A stretch of DNA of 64,000 nt from Actinomycetota bacterium (GCA_048498315.1 JBEHYF010000009.1:1884-65883), one strand, 5' to 3'. Shown: positions 35,883 to 47,218, counted from the first letter of the stretch. Notes: generated by a model not told the origin, from the letters alone. Made by a program: numbers and translations.

Positions 35883-37166
35883 TCAGGCGTGCGCGGGCGC
35901 CGTCCGGGTGGGCGTCGACTGGGCCCTCGGCGGCGACGCGGGCGTGCCGCTCGTGCCGCTCAACGGCGTCGTCGTCACCACGTGGTCACCGGCGCTGCCC
36001 TTCAGCCACTTGCTGAACGACATCTGCCAGTAGCCCCAGCCGTTGTTCCACTCCAGCTGGCGGGAGCTGCCGGTGATGATGACCACGTCGCCGCGGTAGC
36101 TCAGGTTGTAGAACCAGCGGGCGCCGGAGATCGACTGCCGCACGCAGCCGTGGCTGCAGTTGCGGTGGCCGAGGCACTCGAAGTCGCCCGGGCTCTGGTG
36201 CATGTACTCGCCGCTGTTGCTGATCTGCACGTCCTTCAGCACCAGCTCGTGGTAGTAGCCCGGCTCGCCCTTCTTGATGTTCGGCGAGGTCATCCAGACC
36301 TCGGGCATCTTCCCCATTGTGAGGTGGATGCCGCTGGTGGTGCGGAAGTCGTTGCCGTGCGAGTCGAAGCCGCCCATGCCCCCGCTGATCGGGATGGTCT
36401 TGGCGAGCTTGCCGTCGACGTAGACCTTGCTCTTGTGGGTCTTCAGGCTCACGTGCGCGATGTGCGAGGCACCGATCTTGAAGCTGCGCGTGTAGTCCCT
36501 GGTGCCGTACACGCCGGGCGCCGCCCGCACCCCGGCCAGGTGCGCGACCAGGCTGACCTGGCTGTGCGCGGGCCAGTACGTCTTGGTGCGGAAGATGGCC
36601 TGCTCGTTGCTGATCCAGCGCCAGGCACCCTGCATCGGCGTGGTCGACCTGACCTCCAGCGCGCGCTCGACGGCGGCCTCGTTGCGGACGGGCCGGTTGA
36701 AGGTCACGGTGATCGGCATGCCGATGCCGACGGTCTCACCGGACATCGGGATCACGTCGCTGATCCGGAGCGTCGAGGACGCCTTGAGGGTCTTGAAGTT
36801 GCTCGTGGCGGTCGTCGTGCGCCCGGCGGCGTTCTTCGCCGTCGCGGTGACCGTGTACGAGGTGCCGGGCTTGAGCGTCCAGGTGCTGTGCCAGGTCTTC
36901 TTGTCCGGCGATAGGGTGCCCTCGACGGTGTCGCCGCCGCCCCGCACCGTCACCTGCTCCAGCACTCCGCCGCCGGCGGTCACTGTCACGCCCTTGTCAG
37001 GGCGTGCCTTGGTGGTGCCGTTCGCCGGAGTGATCGCGGCGGTGGCGGCGGCCACCTTCGCCGACTTGCCGACCGAGGCCGCGTTTCCGCTGGACGAGCA
37101 GGCCGCGGCCGGGATGAGAAGGAGTCCGGCCACCGCCGAAGTGATCACTGATCGCCTGATGCCCAC
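35883..37166 (-). CDS. L,D-transpeptidase lipoprotein (LppS/LdtMt2-like)
   Basis: Lipobox PAAAC; Ig-like repeats; H...SHGCVR catalytic motif. Confidence 0.92.
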   Translation of the reverse strand: MGIRRSVITSAVAGLLLIPAAACSSSGNAASVGKSAKVAAATAAITPANGTTKARPDKGVTVTAGGGVLEQVTVRGGGDTVEGTLSPDKKTWHSTWTLKPGTSYTVTATAKNAAGRTTTATSNFKTLKASSTLRISDVIPMSGETVGIGMPITVTFNRPVRNEAAVERALEVRSTTPMQGAWRWISNEQAIFRTKTYWPAHSQVSLVAHLAGVRAAPGVYGTRDYTRSFKIGASHIAHVSLKTHKSKVYVDGKLAKTIPISGGMGGFDSHGNDFRTTSGIHLTMGKMPEVWMTSPNIKKGEPGYYHELVLKDVQISNSGEYMHQSPGDFECLGHRNCSHGCVRQSISGARWFYNLSYRGDVVIITGSSRQLEWNNGWGYWQMSFSKWLKGSAGDHVVTTTPLSGTSGTPASPPRAQSTPTRTAPAHA

Positions 37167-37349
37167 CTGCTGACCCCACCTTTACGGCAGACGATGCACG
37201 ACGCAGAACCGTTGTTGGTTGCGGCGCACATCCGTAATTCCCCGGTTAATCCGAGCATCATAGTATCGATCATTGGAAATGACCGGAGATCGCGGGATTG
37301 CCCTCCCGCCGGCCCCGTGCGCGCCCGCCGACGGCCGGCCGCCACGCGG

Positions 37350-38588
37350 TCAGAGATGGAGGATCACGAGGGCGATGTCGTCTGTGGCCCCGCCGAGCAC
37401 GCCGAGCTCGGCGATGACGGCGTCGGCCAGCGACTCTGCGCCCAGGCGGCGGTGCCGGACCAGGCTTCCGACGAGCCGGTCGAGCCCGACGCCGATGTCC
37501 TCGCCGCGCCGTTCGACCAGGCCGTCAGTGTAGAGGGCGAGCGTGGCGCCTTTTTCGTAGGAGAGGCCGGCCTGGGGATGCCCTTGGGCCTGGAGGCGGG
37601 CACCGAGCGGGGGTTCGACGACCTCGTCGAGAAGCCGCGGCGTGCCGTCCGGGGACAGCAGGACCGGCGGGAGGTGACCCGCGCGGCTGTAGCCGATGGT
37701 GCGCGCGGCACAGTCGATCACGACCTGGACGACCGTCGTGGCGAGGGCGCCATCGATGCATTCGGCACAGCGGCCGAGGACGTCGAGCGCCCGGGCGGGT
37801 CCGTCGACGGCGCGGACCGCGGTGCTGAGCGCGCTGCGGAGCTGGCCCATCACGCAGGCCGCGTGAAGGCCGTGACCCACGACGTCCCCGACCGCCACGG
37901 CGACGCGTTCGTCGCCGAGGTCGACCAGGTCGTACCAGTCACCGCAGACGTTCAGCGAGCCCACGGCGGGCAGGTAGCGGACGGCGAAGTGCGGGGGGAT
38001 CCGGGGTGGCGCGTGGGGAAGCATGGCCTGCTGCAGGGCCAGGGCGACCTCGCGCTCGTGGGCGTGGGCCTTCCGGAGCTGCTCGTTGAGCCGCTGCAGC
38101 TCGTTCGCCCGCACGTAGAGCTCGGCCTCAATCTCGGACTCGCACGCATCCGGGCCGGCCCCGCAGCATGCATGGCCGCGCTCGCGGATGAACGCCGTCA
38201 CGTCCTCCGCCCGGTGGATGATCGCTGCCACCGAGCCGTCGGGGCGCAGGATCGGGATGTTGATCGGGCTCCAGTACCGTTCCTCGAACGTCCCCGGCTT
38301 GCCCATCACGGGGATGTCGTACTTCTGGGGGGCCTGGGTGTCCCTCCGGCCCGTCTCGAGGACGCGGTTCAGAGAGGCGTACAGGTTCCGCATCCCGTTG
38401 GACTCCGAGTCGGCGGGATTGTCGGGAAACGCGTCGAAGATGTACTTACCGACCAGCTCGTCCCTCTCCCGATCGGTCGCCTGGAGGTAGGCCGTGTTGG
38501 CGTCCGCGATGATCAGATCGGGCGACAGGATCAGGCACGGGCTCGGCGTGGCGTAAAAGAGCGCCCGATAGTCGATCTCTTCTTCCAT
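37350..38588 (-). CDS. PAS-domain PP2C/SpoIIE-family phosphatase (RsbP/RsbU-like)
   Basis: PAS (FDAFPDNP...YWSPIN); VCGDWYD, VGDVVGHG, AGHLPP, LYTDGLVE, DDIAL. Confidence 0.92.
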   Translation of the reverse strand: MEEEIDYRALFYATPSPCLILSPDLIIADANTAYLQATDRERDELVGKYIFDAFPDNPADSESNGMRNLYASLNRVLETGRRDTQAPQKYDIPVMGKPGTFEERYWSPINIPILRPDGSVAAIIHRAEDVTAFIRERGHACCGAGPDACESEIEAELYVRANELQRLNEQLRKAHAHEREVALALQQAMLPHAPPRIPPHFAVRYLPAVGSLNVCGDWYDLVDLGDERVAVAVGDVVGHGLHAACVMGQLRSALSTAVRAVDGPARALDVLGRCAECIDGALATTVVQVVIDCAARTIGYSRAGHLPPVLLSPDGTPRLLDEVVEPPLGARLQAQGHPQAGLSYEKGATLALYTDGLVERRGEDIGVGLDRLVGSLVRHRRLGAESLADAVIAELGVLGGATDDIALVILHL

Positions 38589-38710
38589 GGCATCCCTGCA
38601 TGCCTCATGGTGCCCCCGCAACACCGACAGCCTATGCCAAAATTGGCCACATCATCCCATTGACCTGCGCGTTTACGCTAAGTTGCGACCGGGGCGGACG
38701 CCGCGCCTGG

Positions 38711-39769
38711 TCAGATCAGGGCGCGGAGCGCCGCGAAGAACAGCTCGGCGGAGCGCTCCCACGTCGGGAATCCCTCGGCGCGCCGGCGGGCGGCCGCGCC
38801 GAGCCGGACGCGCAGCGCGGGATCGTCGCACAGCGCGCCGAGCGCGGCCACCAGGCCGCCGGCGTCCCCCGGATCGACGAGCAGCGCCTCCCGCCCGTGC
38901 CGGGCCAGGTGCGGCAGGTTTCCGGCCCGCCGGCCCACCACCGGCAGGCCCGCCGTCATCGCCTCGGCGTACACCATGCCGTACGGCTCCCGCAGGCTCG
39001 GCAGCACGAAGACGTCGGCGTCCCGGTAGAACCCGGCGATCTCCTCCCGCGGGACGCGGCCGTGCCGCACGACCCGCCCGGCGAGGTCGGGACGGGCCAG
39101 CCGCCGATGCACGCGCGCCGCGTACGCCGGGTCGATGTTCTCAGCGCCGGCAAGGTGCAGGCGCGCCGCGCCCTCCGGCAGCGCCGCGACCGCGTCGAGC
39201 AGCTCGAGGATGCCCTTGCGCGGCTGCCAGTTCGCCACACACAGCAGCGCCGCCCGCGCACCGCCGCGCAGGTCGCGGGACGGCCCCTGCGCCTCCCGCC
39301 GCAGCACATCCCGGCCGGGCGGGACCACGACCACGTCCGCGAAGCCCTGCGCGGCGACCTGTTCGGCCAGCAGCGCGCTGGACACCAGCAGGCGAGTGGC
39401 ACGGCGGTAGGTACGGCGGTCCAGCGCCGCCTGCACCCGGGTGCGCACCGGCCCGTGGTCCATGCCGCCGGGCGGCTGGTGCAGCATCCCGGCGACGGGC
39501 ACGCCGGGCGGCGTCCGGTACGGCGCGAGGTAGGCGGCCGCGATGCCGTCGATGAGGATCACGTCGGGCCGCCGCGCCGCGACGGCGCGCAGCACCCGGC
39601 GGCCGTGGACCGAGGGGAGAGGGAACACGCCCGGCGGGAAGGAGATGAACGTCAGCCGGGCGTCGCAGGCGGGGGCCAGCTCGGCCATCCGCCGCTGGTA
39701 GAGGTGGCCGCCGGTGAGCGACCGCGGGTCGCCGACGGTGATGAGGGAGATCGAGACGGTGCGGGTCAT
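38711..39769 (-). CDS. Glycosyltransferase family 4 (GT4-A)
   Basis: TVGDPRSLTGGHLY; CVANWQPRKG; VLPSLREPYGMVYAEAM. Confidence 0.9.
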   Translation of the reverse strand: MTRTVSISLITVGDPRSLTGGHLYQRRMAELAPACDARLTFISFPPGVFPLPSVHGRRVLRAVAARRPDVILIDGIAAAYLAPYRTPPGVPVAGMLHQPPGGMDHGPVRTRVQAALDRRTYRRATRLLVSSALLAEQVAAQGFADVVVVPPGRDVLRREAQGPSRDLRGGARAALLCVANWQPRKGILELLDAVAALPEGAARLHLAGAENIDPAYAARVHRRLARPDLAGRVVRHGRVPREEIAGFYRDADVFVLPSLREPYGMVYAEAMTAGLPVVGRRAGNLPHLARHGREALLVDPGDAGGLVAALGALCDDPALRVRLGAAARRRAEGFPTWERSAELFFAALRALI

Positions 39770-40850
39770 CCACGTGTCTCCGACGGTGTTCGGGGCCGGC
39801 GGGCTGTACGGCGGCGGGGAGCGCTACCCGCTGGAGCTGGCCCGCGCGCTCGCGCCGCACGCCGACTGCGAGCTGGTGACGTTCGGCGCCGAGCCGGGGG
39901 TCGAGCTGGAGCCGTGCGGCCTGCGGGTCCGGGTGCTGCGGCCGTGGGGCCGGTGGCGCGGGCGCACGGTGCATCCGATCGCGCCGGGCCTGCCGGCCGC
40001 GCTGGCCGGTGCGGACATCGTCCACGTCCATAACATGCGGGCGGCGCCGAGCCGGCTGGCGGCGCTGGCCGGGCGGATGTCGGGACGCCGGCTGGCCGTG
40101 ACCGACCACGGGCTGGGCGGGGGCGGCTGGTGCGGCGCGCTGCCCCGGATGTTCCACCGGTTCCTGGTGGTGTCGCGGTTCTCGGCGGCCACGCTGGGCG
40201 CGCCGCCCGCGCGGACGGACGTACTGTACGGGGGCGCGGACGTCTCACGGTTCACTCCCGGCCCGGACGAGCGGCGCGCCGGCGTGCTGTTCGTGGGCCG
40301 GCTCACTCCGCACAAGGGGCTGGACCGGCTGATCGAGGCCATGCCGGACGACGCCGAGCTGACCGTGGCCGGGACCGCCGGGCACGACGCCGGCCCGCCG
40401 GAGTCCGGCTATCCCGACCTGCTGCGCCGGCTCGCCCGCAACCGCCGGGTGCGGTTCGCCGGGGCCGTGGCCGACGAGGACATGCCGGAGCTGTACCGGC
40501 GGGCCGCCGTCGTCGTGCTGCCGTCGGTCGAGCGCACCTGCTACGGCCGCCGGGTGCCGATCTCCGAGCTGCTGGGACTCACGGTGCTGGAGGCGATGGC
40601 CAGCGGCACGCCGGTGGTCTGCAGCCGGGTGGGCGGCGTGCCGGAGATCGTCCACGACGGCGAGACCGGCCTCCTGGTCGAGCCGGGCGACGTCGCCGGG
40701 CTGCGGGACCGTCTTTCCGCCGTGCTCGGCGATCCCGCTCTCGCCCGGCGGCTGGCCGCCGCCGCCCGCCGGCACGTGCTGGAGGAGTTCACGTGGGAGC
40801 GGTGCGCGCAACGGTGCCTGGCCGCCTACGACGCGATGCTCGCCGAGTAG
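39759..40850 (+). CDS. Glycosyltransferase family 4 (GT4-B), antisense to both neighbours
   Basis: YGGGERY; LFVGRLTPHKG; ELLGLTVLEAMASGTPVV; start GTG 39759 (alternative ATG 39741). Confidence 0.88.
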   Translation: MRVIHVSPTVFGAGGLYGGGERYPLELARALAPHADCELVTFGAEPGVELEPCGLRVRVLRPWGRWRGRTVHPIAPGLPAALAGADIVHVHNMRAAPSRLAALAGRMSGRRLAVTDHGLGGGGWCGALPRMFHRFLVVSRFSAATLGAPPARTDVLYGGADVSRFTPGPDERRAGVLFVGRLTPHKGLDRLIEAMPDDAELTVAGTAGHDAGPPESGYPDLLRRLARNRRVRFAGAVADEDMPELYRRAAVVVLPSVERTCYGRRVPISELLGLTVLEAMASGTPVVCSRVGGVPEIVHDGETGLLVEPGDVAGLRDRLSAVLGDPALARRLAAAARRHVLEEFTWERCAQRCLAAYDAMLAE

Positions 40851-41209
40851 CCGCCGAACGCCACCGGTGACTCCCAGACGCGCACGGAGAGGGTCTCCGC
40901 GCCGCCCTTGCGGGCCGGCGCGGCGAGGGTGTCGTGCACCCACCGCGCGAGCACCTCGACGGTGACCGCCGGCTCCTCCACGGGCTTGATCTCGTCCAGG
41001 TCGCGGCCGGCGATGCGGGCGATCAGCTCGTTCAGCGCGGCCTCGAGGATGTCCAGGTCGCAGACCATGCCCGCGTCGTCGAGCGCCCGGCGGCCGACGA
41101 CGACCTCGATCCGGTAGTCGTGCTCGTGCGGTTCGCCCTCGGGCGGCGGCTTGCCCGGCATCGAATGCACTGCGCGCACGGTGCCGCTCAGCCCGGCCTC
41201 GTAACCCAT
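40826..41209 (-). CDS. 6-pyruvoyl-tetrahydropterin synthase/QueD-fold (T-fold) protein, atypical
   Basis: AVH, HEHDYRIEV, GMVCD, TVEVLARW, VWES; no CxxxHGH cysteine. Confidence 0.82.
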   Translation of the reverse strand: MGYEAGLSGTVRAVHSMPGKPPPEGEPHEHDYRIEVVVGRRALDDAGMVCDLDILEAALNELIARIAGRDLDEIKPVEEPAVTVEVLARWVHDTLAAPARKGGAETLSVRVWESPVAFGGYSASIAS

Positions 41210-41402
41210 CCACGGCTCCTCTCCTCCGGCCGTTCCGCAACGGTCCGGCCGCCCTTCCCCGCCGCCCCTCGGCGGCCCGGTCGTCCTTCCGTCTCCGGGA
41301 CGGCCCCGCCCGGCCGTCTCCTCGACCGCCAGGCATCCTTCCCGGCCGTCCCCTGGACCGTCTCGTCCCGCCCGGCGGTCTCCTCGGCGGCCCGGCCGTC
41401 GC

Positions 41403-42392
41403 TCACCCGGCGACGCCGGACGGCTCGTACGCCAGCGCGGCGTGCATCAGACCCTCTTCCCCGCGGTCGAGCGCGGCGAACGCCTCGGCCGCCCGCTCGA
41501 ACGGGTACGTGTGGGTGGCCAGCGGGCCGAGGGGAAGCTCGGCCAGCAGCGCGGCGGCCGTGCGGCGCCGGCGCTCGGGCGTCCACGTGCCGCCGAGCGC
41601 TGCCGGGATCGTCGACACCTGGGTGCTGCGGATCGCCAGGCGGCGGCGGTGGAAGGCGCGGCCCAGCGGCAGCGTCACGTCCTTCGTGCCGAGCCAGGAC
41701 GCCAGCAGCAGCGTGCCCTCGTGGGTGAGCAGGTCCAGCGCGGGTCCGGGCGCGTGCGGGCTGCCGGTCGCATCGACGACCACCGGCGCGCCGGCTCCCT
41801 CCGTCTCCCGCGCGACCGCGCCGGGCAGGTCGCCGGGGGCGAGCGCGCGCAGGCCGAGCGAGGCGGCGATCTCGCGGCGCCATCCGCGCGGCTCCGCGCA
41901 CAGCACGCGCGCGCCCGCGCGGGCCAGCAGGAGGGCGGTGAGCGTGCCGAGCACGCCCGCGCCGAGCACCACGACGGTGTCGCCGTACCGCGGCGCGGCG
42001 TCCAGAGTGATCTGCAGGGCGGTCTCCACGAGCGGGAACAGCGTCGCCACGCGCGGGTCGACCGGCGGCAGCCGCACGAGCGAGTCGGCCGGCACGACGA
42101 GAACGTCCTGGTGCGGATGGAAGGCGAAGACCAGGTCGCCGTCGTGCCGGCCGACGCAGCTGTAGCCGTACGGGAACGGATAGCCGAACGTGCCGGACAG
42201 CGCGTCGAGGCTCTCGTCCAGCTCGGTGTCCGGCGGCACCTCGCCCCGGTAGACCAGCAGCTCGGTCCCGGAGCTGATCCCGGAGAAGAGCGTCTCGACG
42301 CGGACCCGGCCGTCGCCGACGGGGTCGAGGAGGGACGTCTCGCGGATCTCCACCCGCCGCGGGGCGACGTGGACGAGGTGGCGGGCCGTCAC
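41403..42392 (-). CDS. Medium-chain dehydrogenase/reductase (zinc-binding ADH-like) lacking canonical Zn ligands
   Basis: SGISSGTE, YGYSCVG, FHPHQD, VVVLGAGVLG, STQVS. Confidence 0.85.
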   Translation of the reverse strand: MTARHLVHVAPRRVEIRETSLLDPVGDGRVRVETLFSGISSGTELLVYRGEVPPDTELDESLDALSGTFGYPFPYGYSCVGRHDGDLVFAFHPHQDVLVVPADSLVRLPPVDPRVATLFPLVETALQITLDAAPRYGDTVVVLGAGVLGTLTALLLARAGARVLCAEPRGWRREIAASLGLRALAPGDLPGAVARETEGAGAPVVVDATGSPHAPGPALDLLTHEGTLLLASWLGTKDVTLPLGRAFHRRRLAIRSTQVSTIPAALGGTWTPERRRRTAAALLAELPLGPLATHTYPFERAAEAFAALDRGEEGLMHAALAYEPSGVAG

Positions 42393-42402
42393 GGCGGACG
42401 AT

Positions 42403-42428
42403 CTACCCGTATGACCGAATCGCGAAAC
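42403..42428 (-). promoter_or_regulatory. SigB/SigF-type promoter GTTT-N16-GGGTAG for the MDR-PTPS arm
   Basis: -35 at 42428-42425, -10 at 42408-42403, 10 nt before GTG 42392. Confidence 0.6.
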
Positions 42429-42435
42429 ACCTCCT

Positions 42436-42461
42436 GGTTTGGCAGTGATCTTGTGGGGAAA
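42436..42461 (+). promoter_or_regulatory. SigB/SigF-type promoter GGTTT-N15-GGGAAA for the ribA-ribD fusion
   Basis: -35 at 42436-42440, -10 at 42456-42461, 10 nt before ATG 42472. Confidence 0.6.
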
Positions 42462-42471
42462 ATGTTGCCTC

Positions 42472-43845
42472 ATGACAACACCGGTCCGGGAGATAACCCG
42501 CGTACCCCTCCCGACCGCCGCCGGGAACTTCGACGTCGCGGGCTTCGAGCTGCCCTCAGGTCTGGTGTACCTCGCGCTGATCAAGGGCGATATCGGCGAC
42601 GGACGGTCCGTGCTCACCCGCATGCACTCCGAGTGCCTCACCGGCGACGTGCTGGACTCCCTGCGCTGCGACTGCGGCATTCAGCTCCGTTTCGCCCTGC
42701 GCGTGCTGGCCGCGGAGGGCCGCGGCGTACTCCTCTACCTCACCGGCCAGGAGGGCCGTGGCATCGGCCTGGCAGCCAAGCTGCGCGCCTACCGCGAACA
42801 GGATGCGGGCGCCGACACCCTGGAGGCCAACCACCGGCTCGGCCTGCCCGGCGACATGCGCCGCTACACCGAGGCCGCCGCCGTCCTGACCGCCCTCGGC
42901 GTGCGGTCGGTGCGGCTCCTGACCAACAACCCCGCCAAGGCGGAGGCCCTGCGTGCCGAGGGCATCGAGGTCGTCCGCATGGAGGGCATCACCACCGCGC
43001 CGCACCGGAACAACCGGCGCTACCTGCGCACCAAGCAACAGCGAATGGGCCACGTCTCCCCTCTCGGCGCCCCGCTTCCGGAGGTGGCCGAGACCCCGGT
43101 CGACGCCACCACCCTGCTCGGCCGGGTCGCCCCGCCGCCCGGACGCCCGCACGTCCTCGTGAAGTACGCCCAGACCCTCGACGGCCGCATCGCCACCCGC
43201 AGCGGCGACTCGCAGTGGATCAGCGGCGAGCCCGAACGCCGGGTCTCGCACGCGCTGCGCGCCGCCTCCGACGCCGTGCTGGTGGGCGTCGGAACCGTGC
43301 TGCGCGACGACCCGCAGCTCACCGTGCGGCTGGTCACGGGCGCCTCCCCCATCCGCGTCGTGCTGGACTCGCTGCTGCGGACGCCGCCCGACGCCCGCGT
43401 CCTCGACGACGACGCTCCGACGGTCGTGGTCACGACCGAGGCCGCGCCGCCGGAACGCCGCCGTGAGCTGGTCGGGCGCGGCGTCGGCGTACGCGTCGCC
43501 AAGGCGGGTCCCGGCGGCGTGGACCTGACCGACGCACTGTCCTGCCTGCGCGCCGACGGCATCCGCTCGGTCATGGTCGAGGGCGGCGCACGGGTGATCA
43601 CCTCGCTGCTGGCCGCCCGGCTGGTCGACCGGCTCATCGCCTCCGTCTCGCCGCGCGTCATGGGGGCCGGCACCGAGGCGGTCGGCGACCTCGGTTCCGA
43701 CCGCGTCACCGACGCGGTGCGGCTGACCGGCCGGTCGGTCCACCCCGTCGGGGACGACGTGCTGCTCGCCTACGACGTGACCCCGCTGAGCACCGCCGTC
43801 TCCCCCGTCGGCGGGCGGGCCGACGTACCGGCGCCGGCCGACTGA
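42472..43845 (+). CDS. ribA: GTP cyclohydrolase II fused to a RibD_C (pyrimidine reductase) domain, without the deaminase domain
   Basis: RMHSECLTGDVLDSLRCDCG, QEGRGIGL.AKLRAY, LLTNNP; then KYAQTLDGRIA, SHALRA, VGVGTVLRDDPQLTVR, VEGG. Confidence 0.9.
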   Translation: MTTPVREITRVPLPTAAGNFDVAGFELPSGLVYLALIKGDIGDGRSVLTRMHSECLTGDVLDSLRCDCGIQLRFALRVLAAEGRGVLLYLTGQEGRGIGLAAKLRAYREQDAGADTLEANHRLGLPGDMRRYTEAAAVLTALGVRSVRLLTNNPAKAEALRAEGIEVVRMEGITTAPHRNNRRYLRTKQQRMGHVSPLGAPLPEVAETPVDATTLLGRVAPPPGRPHVLVKYAQTLDGRIATRSGDSQWISGEPERRVSHALRAASDAVLVGVGTVLRDDPQLTVRLVTGASPIRVVLDSLLRTPPDARVLDDDAPTVVVTTEAAPPERRRELVGRGVGVRVAKAGPGGVDLTDALSCLRADGIRSVMVEGGARVITSLLAARLVDRLIASVSPRVMGAGTEAVGDLGSDRVTDAVRLTGRSVHPVGDDVLLAYDVTPLSTAVSPVGGRADVPAPAD

Positions 43846-43951
43846 ACCCGCCGGGCCGAAAGCCAGACCCGAACGGCCGGCCGCACGCAGCCGGGCCAAG
43901 GTCCCCGGTGCCCTCTCGCCGCGGCCGGCGGGTACGGGATGGCCGGAGCGT

Positions 43952-45400
43952 TCAGCGGGAGGGCCGCCCGGCGGCGGCGCGTCGCGTGACCGGAGGGAAG
44001 AACTCGCCGACGAGCGTGCGGTGCCACCAGGCGCCGGTCGCGCGCTTCTCCTGCCGGGTGGTGAAACGGTAGCGGTACAGCCGCGCCCGGACGACGGCGG
44101 GCGGGGCGTCGGGGAACGGGTTGCGGCGCAGCAGGCGCAGCGTCGCCCGGTCGCCCTCCAGCAGCCTTTCCAGGAAGGGCGGGAACCACGGCTCGGCGTA
44201 GCCCGGTGACAGCGCCGCGAACCACATCAGCCAGTCGAGCCGCAGGTGGTACGGCGCGACCTGGGGCGGCCGGCGGAACGGGTCGCCGGGCTTGCCCTTG
44301 AACTCGTACTCGCGCCAGACCGCGTCCGGCCCCGCCGCCGGGTCGTCGGTGCCCTCGATCACCACCTCGTACCGGGTCTTGGTGATGCTGCCGAACGCTC
44401 CGTAGGTGTTGACCAGGTGCAGTGGGTTGAAGCTGGCGTTCATCCGCTGGCGCCGGGACAGGAGGTTGACGGCGGGCCAGTAGCTCAGCACGACCACCAG
44501 CACCCCGACCGCGATCACGAGCGCGCCGAACCACACGGGTACGCCCTGCGGGCCGCGGCCCGGCGACAGCCCGGCTGCGCGCACGGCGCCGTGCCAGTCG
44601 ACCACGGACGTCGCCAGGATCACGGTGAGCCAGTTCAGCCACGAGAAGTTCCCCGAGACGATCAGCCAGAACTGGGTCACGATGACGATGGCCGCGGCGA
44701 CGCTCGCGTACGGCTGCGGCGCGAACAGCGCGAACGGGACCATGAGCTGCGTGGCGTGGCTGGCCGCCACCTCGATCCGGTGCAGCGGCCGGGGCAGCAG
44801 GTGGAAGCTGCGGCTGAGCGGGCCGGGCATCGGCTGGGTCTCGTGGTGGTAGTACAGGCAGGTCAGGTCCCGCCAGCACCGGTCACCGCGCATCTTGATC
44901 AGCCCGGCGCCGAACTCCAGGCGGAACAGCAGCCAGCGCAGCAGCCACAGGATCGGCGCGGGCGGCGCGACCCGCGCGTTGCCGAGGAAGATCGTCAGGA
45001 AGCCGGCCTCGCACAGCAGCGACTCCCAGCCGAAGCCGTACCAGGTCTGGCCGACGTTCACGATCGACAGGTACAGCGCCCACAGCACCGCCCACAGCGC
45101 CATCGCGGCCCCGGTGGGCACCACGTCGCCGGCCCCGGCCAGCAGCACCGCTGCGACCGCCGCCCCCGTCCAGGCGATGGTGGCGAACAGCCGGTCGGAG
45201 TAGCGCAGGTGGAACAGGCTCGGCGCCCGCCGGAACGACACGAGGCGCAGGTACGCCGGGATCGGCGTCAGGCCGCGCTCGCCGATCAGCGGGCGGAACT
45301 GGTTCACCGCGACGAGGAAGGCGACCAGGTAGGTCGCGGCCAGGCCGCGCTCGAACACCAGCCGGCTCAGCCGGTAACCGGGCTCGGCGAGCCAATCCAT
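43952..45400 (-). CDS. Lipase maturation factor (LMF1) family membrane protein
   Basis: WYGFGWESLLCEAGFL, RLEFGAGLIK, YHHETQPMP, GNFSWLNW, YGAFG, EYEFKGKPG, RLDWLMWFA. Confidence 0.9.
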   Translation of the reverse strand: MDWLAEPGYRLSRLVFERGLAATYLVAFLVAVNQFRPLIGERGLTPIPAYLRLVSFRRAPSLFHLRYSDRLFATIAWTGAAVAAVLLAGAGDVVPTGAAMALWAVLWALYLSIVNVGQTWYGFGWESLLCEAGFLTIFLGNARVAPPAPILWLLRWLLFRLEFGAGLIKMRGDRCWRDLTCLYYHHETQPMPGPLSRSFHLLPRPLHRIEVAASHATQLMVPFALFAPQPYASVAAAIVIVTQFWLIVSGNFSWLNWLTVILATSVVDWHGAVRAAGLSPGRGPQGVPVWFGALVIAVGVLVVVLSYWPAVNLLSRRQRMNASFNPLHLVNTYGAFGSITKTRYEVVIEGTDDPAAGPDAVWREYEFKGKPGDPFRRPPQVAPYHLRLDWLMWFAALSPGYAEPWFPPFLERLLEGDRATLRLLRRNPFPDAPPAVVRARLYRYRFTTRQEKRATGAWWHRTLVGEFFPPVTRRAAAGRPSR

Positions 45401-45836
45401 CCGGGCCGTCCACCCCCAATCCTGTGCCGGAGCCCCGTCGCCCGCCGGATCCCTGTTTTTCCCGCATGCCGCGGCCGAAACGGCACCGGCGGCGACATCC
45501 TGCCGCGGCCGCGTATCCGGCCATGCGCCGCCGTCCATCGACCCCTCGGAGATGGTGACGCGGGCGCAACGCGACGGGAAAGGGCGCGAGGTGGGTCTGG
45601 GCGGCGGCCCAGGCGATGCCCTCGCCGCGCGCGGGGTGGCGCACCCAGGCCGGCCCGCGCCAGAACCGGCTTGGGCGAACGCGGGGAGGCGGGCTCCGAC
45701 AGAGCCTGACTCGCTTCGTCAGGGTCGGATGGAGCGGCAGGTGAGACTAATGTCCCTAAACCGCGCCGCCGGGCCTCGGCGAAAGTGGCTATGTCATCGC
45801 CGGTCGCCACGGACCGATGCGAGAGGCGGGGGAGCC

Positions 45837-46187
45837 GTGACCGTTCAGCTCAAGAGTAGCCGGGCCGCGCCGGGCAGCGTCGTCGTGCCGCTGCACGGCG
45901 AACTCGACATCGCCACCGCGGGCCCGGCGACCGAGCGCGCGCTCGCCCACGCGATCCCCGGATCCGTCCTGGTCCTCGACGTCTCGCGGGTGACCTTCTG
46001 CGACTGCAGTGGCCTGACCGCCCTGCTGCGTGCGGCACGCCGGGCACGCGCGATGGGCTGTGGCTTCGCCCTCATGGCACCCAGCCCGATGATGACCCGG
46101 TTGCTCGCCATCACCCGCGTGCGCGACCGGCTTCCCGTGCTCGACGAGTTCGTCACGCTCCCGGTTCCGTCGCCGGCGGCGCAGTAG
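45837..46187 (+). CDS. STAS-domain anti-sigma-factor antagonist
   Basis: LHGELDIATA, LVLDVSRVTFCDCSGL; GGGGGAG RBS. Confidence 0.85.
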   Translation: MTVQLKSSRAAPGSVVVPLHGELDIATAGPATERALAHAIPGSVLVLDVSRVTFCDCSGLTALLRAARRARAMGCGFALMAPSPMMTRLLAITRVRDRLPVLDEFVTLPVPSPAAQ

Positions 46188-46399
46188 AACGCACGAGGGC
46201 CGGGTGCGGTCACGGCCGGTGCACGTCGGTGACTCGACGCGACGCCGCGGCTGCCCGCCGGCGGGCCGTACATTTCGGCCGTCGCCCGGCTGCCCGCGGC
46301 CCTCCCCGCCCGGCCCGCGTGCCGATGGCGGCCGGACGGACGGCCGCCGCAGCCCCGGCGCTCCTGGCCTCGGGGGCGGACGCGGGCCGCGGGCCGCGC

Positions 46400-47218
46400 T
46401 CACGCCATGGCGGGCCGGGTGCCGATGACGACGGTGGCGCCGAGGGCCGCGCAGCGGGCGACGGCGGCGGCCAGCCCGCCGGCGGTGACGGCGTCCACGG
46501 CCGCCGCCACCTGCTCTTCGCCGATCTCCGACAGCAGGTGACCGCCGGGTTCGAGCCAGCGCGCCGCGTCCGCGGCCACCCGGCGCAGGACATCGAGGCC
46601 GTCCGCGCCGCCGTCGAGCGCCACGCGCGCCTCGTGGTCGCGCGCCTCCGCGGGCAGCAGTCGCACCCGCGCGGTCGGCACGTACGGGACGTTGGCCAGC
46701 AGGACGCCGACCCGCCCGCGCAGGCCCGCGGGCAGGGGCGCGTAGAGGTCGCCCTCGTACACGCGGCCGCCGGCGGCGGCGACGTTGCGGCGGGCGCAGC
46801 GCACCGCGGCCGGGTCGACGTCGGCCGCGTGCAGCTCCACCGGGCCGGCCTCGGCGGCCAGCGCGCTGCCGAGCGCCCCCGACCCGCAGCACAGGTCGAC
46901 GACGACGAGCTGGCGCGTACGGCCGGCGGCGGCCCGGCCGGCGAGCGCGACGGCGCGCTCCACGAGGAACTCGGTGCGGCGGCGCGGGACGAAGACGCCG
47001 GGGTCGACGGCCACCCGCAGGCCGCGGAACTCCGCCCAGCCGACGACGTGTTCGAGCGGCAACCCGGCGGCCCGGCGTTCGACCAGGGCGGTCAGCTCGC
47101 CGGAGCTGCGCGCCGCGGAGACGAGCAGGCGCGCCTCCTCCTCGGCGAACACGCAGCCGGCGGCCCGCAGCCGGGTCACGATGGCGGACAGGGACGGCGA
47201 AGCCGGTGACGGGGACAC
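46400..47218 (-). CDS. HemK/PrmC-like putative N5-glutamine methyltransferase (actinobacterial paralog)
   Basis: RLRAAGCVFAEEEA, PLEHVVGWAEF, VFVPRRRTE, DLCCGSG, ANVPYVP, ALDGGADGL. Confidence 0.85.
   Translation of the reverse strand: MSPSPASPSLSAIVTRLRAAGCVFAEEEARLLVSAARSSGELTALVERRAAGLPLEHVVGWAEFRGLRVAVDPGVFVPRRRTEFLVERAVALAGRAAAGRTRQLVVVDLCCGSGALGSALAAEAGPVELHAADVDPAAVRCARRNVAAAGGRVYEGDLYAPLPAGLRGRVGVLLANVPYVPTARVRLLPAEARDHEARVALDGGADGLDVLRRVAADAARWLEPGGHLLSEIGEEQVAAAVDAVTAGGLAAAVARCAALGATVVIGTRPAMA

Follow-up and report, generated by a model that had tools for sequence, protein, structure and literature searches.

Gene content of the locus

The window, a 64,000-nucleotide stretch of DNA from an Actinomycetota bacterium, carries a compact group of five protein-coding genes at positions 38711 to 43845. 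Genes were called by third-position GC analysis together with Pfam/NCBIfam scans, and these scans confirm the content claimed in an earlier note: two GT4 glycosyltransferases, a PTPS-like T-fold protein, an atypical MDR dehydrogenase, and a fusion of GTP cyclohydrolase II (GCH II) with a RibD_C reductase domain. The features are as follows.

38711..39769, minus strand: GT4a, a GT4 glycosyltransferase of 352 aa (Pfam Glycos_transf_1, Glyco_trans_4_4)
39714..40850, plus strand: GT4b, a second GT4 (Pfam), with its start at GTG 39714, ATG 39741 or GTG 39759
40826..41209, minus strand: PTPS-like T-fold protein of 127 aa (PF01242, 68.8 bits)
41210..41402: GC-rich spacer of 193 nt with three direct repeats of ~30 nt
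41403..42392, minus strand: BchC-like MDR dehydrogenase of 329 aa (PF00107)
42393..42471: putative divergent promoter region, 79 nt long, with a back-to-back pair of motifs
42472..43845, plus strand: GCH II::RibD_C fusion of 457 aa (PF00925, 188 bits; PF01872, 185 bits)

The longest open reading frame for the MDR gene extends to 42680 and into the fusion gene, and this start was rejected. GT4b overlaps the start of GT4a at its 5' end and, by 25 nt, the PTPS stop at its 3' end, and the overlaps recur in two other loci (L001 and L003). The repeats of the spacer have no other copy in the genome, and the MDR and PTPS genes abut or overlap in loci L001-L003, in contrast to the 193-nt separation in the window.

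The scanned genes that flank the module code for an L,D-transpeptidase, a PAS-PP2C phosphatase, an LMF1-like membrane protein, a STAS protein and a methyltransferase, and include no rib, que or fol genes. Pfam/NCBIfam scans likewise revealed no ribE, ribH, deaminase, queCE or folE beside the five genes, and no Rfam family matched positions 37000-46500 at E <= 1, hence there is no FMN riboswitch. A riboflavin operon was rejected on these grounds, as the RibD deaminase, RibE, RibH and riboswitch are not in this region and the rib genes lie on another contig (C171). The assertion that the locus does not encode riboflavin, queuosine or folate synthesis therefore holds in the sense that this is no ordinary operon of these pathways and their companion genes are not adjacent.

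Distribution of the module

Geodermatophilus, Blastococcus, Actinoallomurus and many Actinomycetota MAGs share the module at 50-75% identity, with the layout of five genes seen in Geodermatophilus, Actinoallomurus and MAGs, and a core of reductase, MDR, PTPS and GT4 is kept in other gene orders in Rubrobacteraceae and Ornithinimicrobium. A sample of 400 Actinomycetota included 26 with a close orthologue of the PTPS-like protein, and the Rubrobacter family has one in 19 of 31 genomes. Dozens of distant genomes carry these genes together, so the grouping is not due to chance, and the locus indeed represents a coherent conserved module. In two tier-1 loci (L107 and L110) MDR, PTPS and GT4a are directly consecutive, whereas in the window GT4b lies between PTPS and GT4a on the other strand.

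The GCH II::RibD_C fusion and riboflavin synthesis

The GCH II domain of the fusion spans ~42499-42978 and the RibD_C pyrimidine reductase domain ~43147-43767, and the protein passes the NCBIfam cut-offs for GTP cyclohydrolase II RibA (NF001591) and for ribD_Cterm. Its relatives in the PDB are 2BZ0, 6P8C, 2AZN and 2B3Z. Alignment reveals that the zinc Cys residues and Tyr107 of the GCH II domain are retained, the latter in the context KLRAY, and this Tyr is present in all 107 homologues. The fusion thus has the catalytic signatures of both domains, as in eubacterial RibA and RibD reductase and in the archaeal and fungal ArfC/Rib7 enzymes. It differs from these riboflavin steps in being without a deaminase, lumazine synthase, riboflavin synthase or riboswitch, and in its linkage to MDR, PTPS-like and GT4 genes.

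The reductase domain carries Lys231 within the sequence KYAQTLDG, and Lys occupies this position in 118 of 120 homologues. The corresponding residue is Ser or Thr in Rubrobacter reductases, and Ser, Thr or Gln across the sister cluster variants. Work on B. subtilis RibG reportedly indicates that the Lys of eubacterial RibD-type enzymes selects the deaminated substrate. Since the fusion reductase carries this Lys, the previous suggestion that the pathway skips deamination to yield a reduced ribityl-diaminopyrimidinone is uncertain. The cluster has no deaminase although its reductase Lys is of the RibD type, which counts against the pathway proposed below.

The same genome encodes an intact RibBA, RibE and RibH on contig C171, and FolE and FolB on contig C6. 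However, the housekeeping RibD on C171 matches RibD_C at positions 1-111 of 197 only, and eubact_ribD at positions 1-245 of 343. The last third of the reductase domain is missing from this protein, and there is a ~200-nt deletion relative to congeners. The fusion is the sole protein in the genome that exceeds the ribD_Cterm cut-off. Therefore, the fusion reductase is the only full-length riboflavin-type reductase found in this genome, and judging from the truncation it may also serve riboflavin synthesis in place of RibD.

This raises the alternative that the fusion is a second RibA plus RibD reductase for riboflavin (or FO/F420) and that the MDR, PTPS-like and GT4 genes act independently. The truncated RibD, as well as the RibD-type Lys and canonical GCH II Tyr of the fusion, speak in favor of this explanation, but we regard it as quite unlikely. 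The linkage of fusion, MDR, PTPS and GT4 genes spans class-level distances and several gene orders. Moreover, the module is present in 5 of 20 congeners, the 15 that lack it have normal rib genes, and one congener (G408) carries the module together with a full-length RibD. The RibD truncation is confined to the window genome among the genomes compared, and no FMN riboswitch is present at the module. In its strict form, wherein the fusion would be the only entry into riboflavin synthesis, this scenario had been named as one that would refute the pathway. It is partly borne out, in that the housekeeping RibD is truncated; the intact RibBA and the linkage of the fusion to the MDR, PTPS and GT4 genes speak against it.

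The MDR dehydrogenase

The description of the MDR protein as atypical is accurate, as Ser, Tyr and Ser replace the Cys, His and Glu of zinc-dependent MDR enzymes, with ISSGTE and GYSCVG at these sites. An acidic residue (AEP) comes after its GxGxxG Rossmann motif, suggesting NAD(H) as the cofactor. Orthologues are present in all cluster variants, including those of Streptomyces, and share the invariant motifs GIS.G.E, GY, PHQ, ET and FH..R. The best NCBIfam match is BchC (TIGR01202) at 68.3 bits, far under the curated cut-off of 291 bits, and assignment as a true BchC was therefore rejected. An AF2 model (pLDDT 90.2) most closely resembles the folds of threonine, butanediol and sorbitol dehydrogenases (TM 0.7-0.8).

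The PTPS-like T-fold protein

Alignments show that the PTPS-like protein keeps the zinc-binding His triad (H15, H28 and H30) but has neither the catalytic Cys nor the Asp-His dyad, and thus it too is rightly called atypical. Glu24 occupies the position of QueD Cys27, Glu85 and Glu113 are kept, and the dyad positions are Ala and Gly. The motif P[GP]PEG is found in 118 of 120 homologues. An AF2 model (pLDDT 93.8) has as its best PDB match 3D7J (TM 0.85), with QueD next. This structure of SCO6650 is the best match both by sequence profile and by fold. Without the usual Cys/Asp/His catalytic set, the T-fold protein might have a role in binding or as a scaffold.

Three known PTPS classes were considered and rejected. 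PTPS-I (QueD) has the motif CxxxHGH, whereas the window protein has Glu24 for Cys, and QueC and QueE are not nearby. The Cys motif of PTPS-II (CxxxxxHGH) is likewise missing, and in place of the GCH I and SDR enzymes of that pathway the cluster encodes a GCH II and an MDR. PTPS-III proteins are defined by the motif ExxHGH, with Glu three residues ahead of the first His (PMC5041015). The conserved Glu24 of the window protein is instead four residues ahead of His28, and most homologues have Gln where it has Glu26.

The glycosyltransferases

GT4a is the orthologue of the one GT4 present in the Rubrobacter, Ornithinimicrobium and Streptomyces versions of the cluster, with identities of 46-72% among tier-1 loci, 33-39% in Rubrobacter and ~30% in Streptomyces. 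Its closest solved relatives are SPS, MshA and PimB. GT4b is 55-71% identical in most tier-1 loci but has no counterpart in three of them (L107, L108 and L110) or in tiers 2 and 3. Because GT4b is accessory, the view that the product is glycosylated twice does not extend to the core of the system. Both window GT4s have detectable homology to the pteridine glycosyltransferases of cyanobacteria and Chlorobium (E 4e-6 to 7e-10). However, they are closer to SPS, MshA and PimB than to these enzymes, and no specific kinship to pteridine glycosylation stands out, which counts against the pathway proposed below.

Relationship to the Streptomyces SCO6648-SCO6655 cluster

By sequence comparison, the window module is homologous to the orphan SCO6648-SCO6655 (PTPS-IV) cluster of Streptomyces, as the earlier note had stated. 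In S. coelicolor, SCO6650 is the PTPS-IV protein and SCO6655 a GCH II variant. In both clusters, the PTPS gene is directly preceded by the gene of a BchC-like MDR without zinc ligands (the window MDR is 38-41% identical to the Streptomyces one beside the SCO6650 orthologue), a GT4 follows the PTPS gene, and a dedicated GCH II is present. The gene association is already in print (AGeNNT 2017, PMC5445326; COG0720 literature), and in that respect the system is not undescribed. We found no published function for the cluster.

The two versions also differ. The signature of PTPS-IV is FGPAQ (PMC5445326), which is present in Ornithinimicrobium and Streptomyces, whereas Rubrobacter has FGPAT and the window has PPPEGE. 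More broadly, the window PTPS carries P(P/G)PEG..H.H with the full zinc His triad and Glu24, compared with FGPAQ..HGA in SCO6650. The window GCH II is of the Tyr type (KLRAY) and fused to RibD_C, with no creatininase gene. In contrast, the Streptomyces locus L116 has a Met-type, FAPy-forming GCH II (KLRAM) and a creatininase-like deformylase (PF02633), with no RibD_C nearby. The second GT4 is a feature of the window.

A further difference is a CDP-alcohol phosphatidyltransferase gene, which is divergent beside the MDR gene in Streptomyces (L116) and Ornithinimicrobium (L012), and co-occurs with PTPS in 5 of 5 Streptomyces-type genomes. The glycosylated product might accordingly become the head group of an envelope phospholipid through this transferase, with that half of the system on another contig in the window genome. 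Contig C101 carries a 56%-identical orthologue of the transferase beside an LPG_synthase_TM protein and a methyltransferase-like gene that is 37% identical to one in the L012 cluster, and the genome offers this transferase no other PTPS or BchC-like MDR partner. Still, this link is one of presence in the same genome only. At E <= 1e-5 the transferase has no match in five carriers of the module, of which four are tier 1 and one is a Rubrobacter, and Pfam CDP-OH_P_transf is absent within 10 kb of the module in L001-L003, as it is beside the module in the window. We view a membrane role as rather unlikely.

Supply of a precursor for a known cofactor, either F420/FO or a folate- or methanopterin-like pterin, appears highly unlikely. 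Curators of COG0720 assign PTPS-IV a part in F420 synthesis on the basis of unpublished results (PMC5041015), and in Rubrobacter the only FolB of the genome adjoins the operon divergently. However, FolE, FolB and HPPK are located elsewhere in carriers, the known structures of F420 and folate include no sugar that calls for a GT4, and the patchy occurrence of the module inside one genus is unlike that of a core cofactor pathway. A search with PF01933 (CofD) gave matches also in organisms that do not make F420.

Candidate promoters

The motif GTTT-N15/16-GGG(T/A)A occurs back to back in the gap between the MDR and fusion genes, at 42404-42428 (minus strand) and 42437-42460 (plus strand). It has 3 occurrences in the 64 kb, compared with 0.22 expected. 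The same back-to-back pair is present in L002 and L108. Of 16 loci, only 3 show full conservation of the motif, and 8 of the 16 tier-1 loci have a GGGTA[GC] box ahead of the MDR start. These motifs are of the SigB/SigF type and are predicted to drive both arms of the module, so its product is probably made under stress. They lend some support to stress control, and to this extent to the stress role envisaged before.

A proposed pathway

We favor, with moderate confidence, a model wherein the locus is the tier-1 arrangement of a conserved accessory Actinomycetota module, homologous to SCO6648-SCO6655, that converts GTP into a glycosylated pterin- or pyrimidine-type product. The five genes together probably yield such a sugar-bearing compound under stress control. 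The sequence analysis establishes which genes are present and how they are conserved, their homology to the SCO cluster, the residue patterns and the promoter motifs, whereas all chemistry beyond GCH II, the acceptor of the sugar and the role in physiology are inferred.

The Tyr-type GCH II domain would convert GTP to 2,5-diamino-6-ribosylamino-4(3H)-pyrimidinone 5'-phosphate, and the fused RibD_C domain would reduce the ribosyl to a ribityl group with NADPH, a step for which the housekeeping RibD might first have to deaminate the substrate. The BchC-like dehydrogenase, zinc-free and of the NAD type, might then oxidize one of the secondary alcohols on the ribityl chain. At C2', this oxidation would give an Amadori ketone that could cyclize to a dihydroneopterin-like (or dihydrolumazine-like) ring. 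The zinc-binding PTPS-like enzyme, with Glu24 as a putative base, might remodel or close the dehydrogenase intermediate. Finally, GT4a would attach a sugar and, in the window arrangement, GT4b a second, with both arms transcribed from the back-to-back candidate promoters.

Parts of this scheme resemble known systems. The BGluT/PGT enzymes of cyanobacteria and Chlorobium (5ZE7, 9V0L; PMC5683033) are also GT-B enzymes that glycosylate GTP-derived pterins, but their pathways begin with GCH I, a Cys-bearing PTPS-II and sepiapterin reductase. A tetrahydrobiopterin-pteridine-glycoside pathway of the PTPS-II type was rejected for the window, where the cluster has no GCH I or SDR and BGluT is a weak match only. 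In Chlamydia, RibA and TrpF convert the GCH II product to dihydroneopterin phosphate through an Amadori step (PMC4161248), and this Amadori-type channelling to a pterin is the logic we propose for the reductase and dehydrogenase. The Chlamydia bypass differs in that it uses an isomerase and feeds folate with no glycosylation, whereas the window would employ a reduction-oxidation pair. Reduction at C1' followed by oxidation at C2' is less economical than an isomerase, which counts against the proposal. A route from a GCH II product to pyrimidine glucosides rather than riboflavin operates in the vicine/convicine pathway of faba bean, in which VC1 is a GCH II; this plant pathway uses UGT-type glycosyltransferases and has no PTPS-like or MDR enzyme.

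Gene content of the cluster

The window has a G+C content of about 75%, and ORF lists are therefore crowded with spurious frames. The five module genes were called by combining third-position GC selection with Pfam and NCBIfam scans, and they are listed below with their neighbours.

Features of the cluster and its surroundings (window coordinates; module genes called from third-position GC, Pfam and NCBIfam)
37350-38624, minus strand: PAS-PP2C (SpoIIE-family) phosphatase, flanking the cluster
38711-39769, minus strand: glycosyltransferase GT4a (module)
39714/39759-40850, plus strand: glycosyltransferase GT4b (module)
40826-41209, minus strand: PTPS-like protein (module)
41210-41402: GC-rich 193-nt spacer separating MDR from PTPS, in which a direct repeat of about 30 nt is present in three copies
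41403-42392, minus strand: MDR dehydrogenase (module)
42472-43845, plus strand: GTP cyclohydrolase II::RibD_C fusion (module)
43952-45538, minus strand: LMF1-like membrane protein, a neighbour
45837-46187, plus strand: STAS-domain protein, flanking the cluster
Neighbour of the cluster: small-domain methyltransferase

The MDR gene starts at the GTG at 42392, not at an upstream ATG at 42680 that would overlap the fusion gene. GT4b, on the opposite strand, shares its first 11-56 nt (39714-39769; the figure varies with the start codon taken) with the 5' end of GT4a and its last 25 nt (40826-40850) with the 3' end of PTPS. Both overlaps are found again in distant genomes (loci L001 and L003). The MDR and PTPS genes abut or overlap in other genomes, unlike in the window, and no further copy of the 193-nt spacer was found elsewhere in the genome. 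NCBIfam has a specific model for none of the five proteins. The inventory in the earlier note, made from the sequence alone, proved correct, given these calls and the lack of any Rfam match in 37000-46500.

Conservation and alternative arrangements

Homologues of the fusion with the identical two-domain architecture number in the thousands, and the window arrangement is present in thousands of soil metagenome sequences. The gene neighbourhoods of three fusion homologues, from Geodermatophilus sp. CP199955, an Actinoallomurus MAG and a 610-kb metagenome contig, have an identical layout, in which GT4a, PTPS and MDR run in reverse and GT4b and the fusion run forward, in the order GT4a, GT4b, PTPS, MDR, fusion. 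With the five window proteins as tblastn queries, a dozen more loci were found to hold the set, at identities of 50-75%. A close PTPS-like orthologue (E <= 1e-34) is encoded by 26 of 400 evenly drawn Actinomycetota genomes, and a distant one (30-36% identity) by 19 of 31 Rubrobacteraceae genomes. Six weak PTPS matches in the phylum sample (L101, L103-L105, L114 and L115) lack MDR, GT4 and reductase genes nearby and were left out of the module count. A profile search with the fusion alignment was flooded by ordinary RibBA genes; true fusions make up about 9 of the 80 loci returned, and the Streptomyces loci among them are plain rib operons.

The Rubrobacter version is a co-directional operon with the order (GCH II) - RibD_C - MDR - PTPS - GT4, and its GT4 carries a fused SAM methyltransferase domain (L096-L100, L102 and L113). 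Both forms occur in radiation- and desiccation-tolerant lineages, the window arrangement in Geodermatophilaceae and this rearranged form in Rubrobacteraceae. In a third arrangement, seen in Ornithinimicrobium and one MAG, GT4, PTPS and MDR come after the fusion on the opposite strand, and a divergent CDP-alcohol phosphatidyltransferase gene is also present. Because four functions persist across the three arrangements, the module core, as read from gene content, is the reductase, the MDR, the PTPS-like protein and one GT4. Accessory genes encode GT4b, methyltransferases, a HAD phosphatase (L003) and GT2/GT9 enzymes. GT4b is missing from some loci of the window type (L107, L108 and L110), and the GT4a/GT4b pair is turned round as one unit in L007 and L111.

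In Rubrobacter, the sole FolB gene of the genome lies divergently beside the operon, followed by genes for a PlsC-like acyltransferase and an MFS transporter. This position raised the possibility that the cluster substitutes for FolE, which was rejected because FolE and HPPK are present elsewhere in the genome.

Predicted enzymes and proposed chemistry

The zinc-binding Cys residues and the Tyr of GCH II are conserved in all 107 homologues examined, and the predicted product should be the normal 2,5-diamino-6-ribosylamino-pyrimidinone 5'-phosphate. The reductase domain carries the motif KYAQTLDG, whose Lys is present in 118 of 120 homologues and is common to Bacillus subtilis RibG and the RibD of this genome. 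The same position is Asn in archaeal enzymes, Ser or Thr in the Rubrobacter cluster and Gln in the third arrangement. In structural work on RibG, this Lys is reported to select the deaminated substrate, so that modules of the window type may or may not skip deamination.

The window PTPS keeps all three zinc His ligands, and where QueD has its catalytic Cys there is an invariant Glu (E24). It also keeps Glu85 (in a T-x-E motif) and Glu113, positions that in PTPS-family enzymes anchor a 2-amino-4-oxo-pyrimidine ring. These residues point in the opposite direction from the reductase Lys, to a substrate that is not deaminated.

No zinc ligands are present in the MDR, and its GxGxxG motif is followed by an acidic residue, a pattern usual in NAD(H) enzymes. 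In fold it is nearest to threonine, butanediol, sorbitol, arabinitol and xylitol dehydrogenases. Together, these clues make oxidation of a secondary alcohol of the ribityl chain the most natural predicted role for this enzyme. Both GT4 proteins are generic. Among solved structures they come closest to sucrose-phosphate synthase, MshA and PimB, enzymes that transfer sugars to small or phosphorylated polyols, and they match tetrahydrobiopterin glucosyltransferases only weakly.

In the route that we propose, the GCH II product would first be reduced to its ribityl form by the fused reductase. The BchC-like dehydrogenase would then oxidise the ribityl C2' to give an Amadori ketone that closes to a dihydropterin, after which the zinc/Glu PTPS-like enzyme would tailor the side chain and glycosylation would follow. 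We consider it rather improbable that the module makes a stress-induced new pterin or lumazine glycoside in this manner, by reduction and then C2' oxidation as an enzymatic Amadori bypass in which the second ring closes without GTP cyclohydrolase I, with PTPS-like side-chain tailoring before glycosylation. A dihydropterin outcome from the GCH II product has been shown in Chlamydia (PMC4161248), where an isomerase is used instead of the reduction and oxidation pair proposed here. A new GTP-derived glycoside, if true, would be an added branch of purine-derived cofactor and pigment metabolism. We found no published product of the module in the literature on pterin glycosides or on GCH II and CDP-alcohol transferases, and actinobacterial glycosides are absent from a 2026 review of bacterial pterins.

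A possible role in riboflavin synthesis

An alternative explanation, already raised in the earlier note, is that the fusion merely serves as the ribA/ribD entry to riboflavin. The housekeeping rib operon, on another contig (C171), encodes RibD, RibE, RibBA and RibH, and FolE and FolB are encoded on a further contig (C6); the window PTPS is the sole PF01242 member in the genome. The RibD of C171 (C171:6215-7144; L120) is truncated, such that the C-terminal third of the reductase domain is gone: it matches RibD_C only at 1-111 of 197 positions and eubact_ribD only at 1-245 of 343. DNA alignment with a congener reveals a deletion of about 200 nt that takes out the EGG/NADPH half. The adjacent RibE, RibBA and RibH are intact, and RibD is full length (370 aa) in three congeners. 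PF01872 is otherwise represented in the genome by an Rv2671-like member of the pyrimidine reductase family and by two weak matches. Thus, the fusion carries the only predicted full-length riboflavin-type reductase found in this genome and may well also serve riboflavin synthesis here, a natural case in which a module reductase may have assumed a step of riboflavin synthesis.

However, riboflavin supply does not account for the complete gene set. Only 5 of 20 congeners carry the module, and one of them (G408) has it together with an intact RibD.

Relation to the Streptomyces SCO6650/SCO6655-type cluster

Structures and single-enzyme characterisations for the SCO6650/SCO6655-type cluster date from 2006-2008 onwards, and to our knowledge the cluster is still without an assigned product. 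In two Streptomyces-type genomes, the order is CDP-OH_P_transf <- / -> MDR - PTPS - GT4 ... creatininase <- / -> GCH II, and the PTPS is the SCO6650 orthologue. The MDR of these clusters is 38-41% identical to that of the window, with invariant motifs common to both (alignment A4). A PTPS profile built only from sequences of the window type has SCO6650 (3D7J) as its best solved match (E 2e-8, versus 1e-6 for QueD), and the AlphaFold model of the window PTPS (pLDDT 93.8) superposes best on the same structure (TM 0.85). On this evidence the two clusters are homologous, which upholds the kinship given in the earlier note.

The two versions nevertheless differ. The FGPAQ..HGA signature of PTPS-IV is replaced by P(P/G)PEG..H.H in the window PTPS, and the window GCH II keeps Tyr107, which is Met in the Streptomyces copy. 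According to the work of Spoonamore and Bandarian, the Met-type enzyme needs the creatininase-like deformylase. Unlike in the Streptomyces cluster, the window reductase is fused to GCH II and the membrane transferase gene is not adjacent. With its full metal site and candidate catalytic Glu in the T-fold enzyme, its canonical GCH II, and no need for a deformylase or an adjacent membrane enzyme, the window variant offers a simpler entry to pathway reconstitution and the metabolite.

A 2017 paper (PMC5445326) already describes a PTPS subgroup that has PF00925 and PF01872 neighbours, and COG0720 curators list PTPS-IV with an unpublished F420 link (PMC5041015). CofD (PF01933) was set aside as an F420 marker because PF01933 also matches organisms without F420. 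No functional assignment was found in the literature for SCO6650, SCO6655, PTPS-IV or SCO2686-2689. The module is real and conserved, a variant of an already-known kind and not unique to the window.

A membrane transferase as a possible partner

A CDP-alcohol phosphatidyltransferase gene adjoins the clusters in Streptomyces and Ornithinimicrobium, and a membrane link through such an enzyme is a live alternative for this genome. An orthologue 56% identical to the Streptomyces transferase is encoded on contig C101 (C101:15550-19455; L118:6550-10455), unlinked to the window, beside a methyltransferase-like gene whose homologue lies inside the Ornithinimicrobium cluster. Also encoded there are an NAD-dependent sugar epimerase/dehydratase and an LPG_synthase_TM membrane protein whose gene is interrupted by the end of the contig. 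However, five other carriers of the window-type or Rubrobacteraceae version have no match to the C101 transferase, and the enzyme was therefore rejected as an obligatory partner of this variant. With stricter filters, no transferase was found among the window-type families in the phylum sample.

Putative promoters and regulation

A scan for sigma-70 promoters and terminators returned nothing useful in DNA of 75% GC. The 79-nt gap between the MDR and fusion genes contains two opposed GTTT-N15/16-GGG(T/A)A motifs; three occurrences of this motif were counted across the window, versus 0.22 expected. The Actinoallomurus locus and L108 have the back-to-back pair as well, and a GGGTA[GC] box lies just upstream of the MDR start in 8 of 16 loci of the window type. 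The opposed motifs fit putative SigB/SigF-type promoters. The PAS-PP2C and STAS genes on either side of the cluster would be in keeping with partner-switching control in this genome, and their products are candidate regulators of a sigma factor that would read GTTT/GGGTA promoters. Neither gene is kept beside the module in other genomes.

The third and last motif, GTTT-N14-GGGAA at 45459-45481 on the minus strand, precedes an in-frame ATG (45400) of the LMF1-like gene by about 55 nt; this gene does not adjoin the module in other genomes. Given this spacing, the LMF1-like gene may start at 45400, under a common stress-type promoter.
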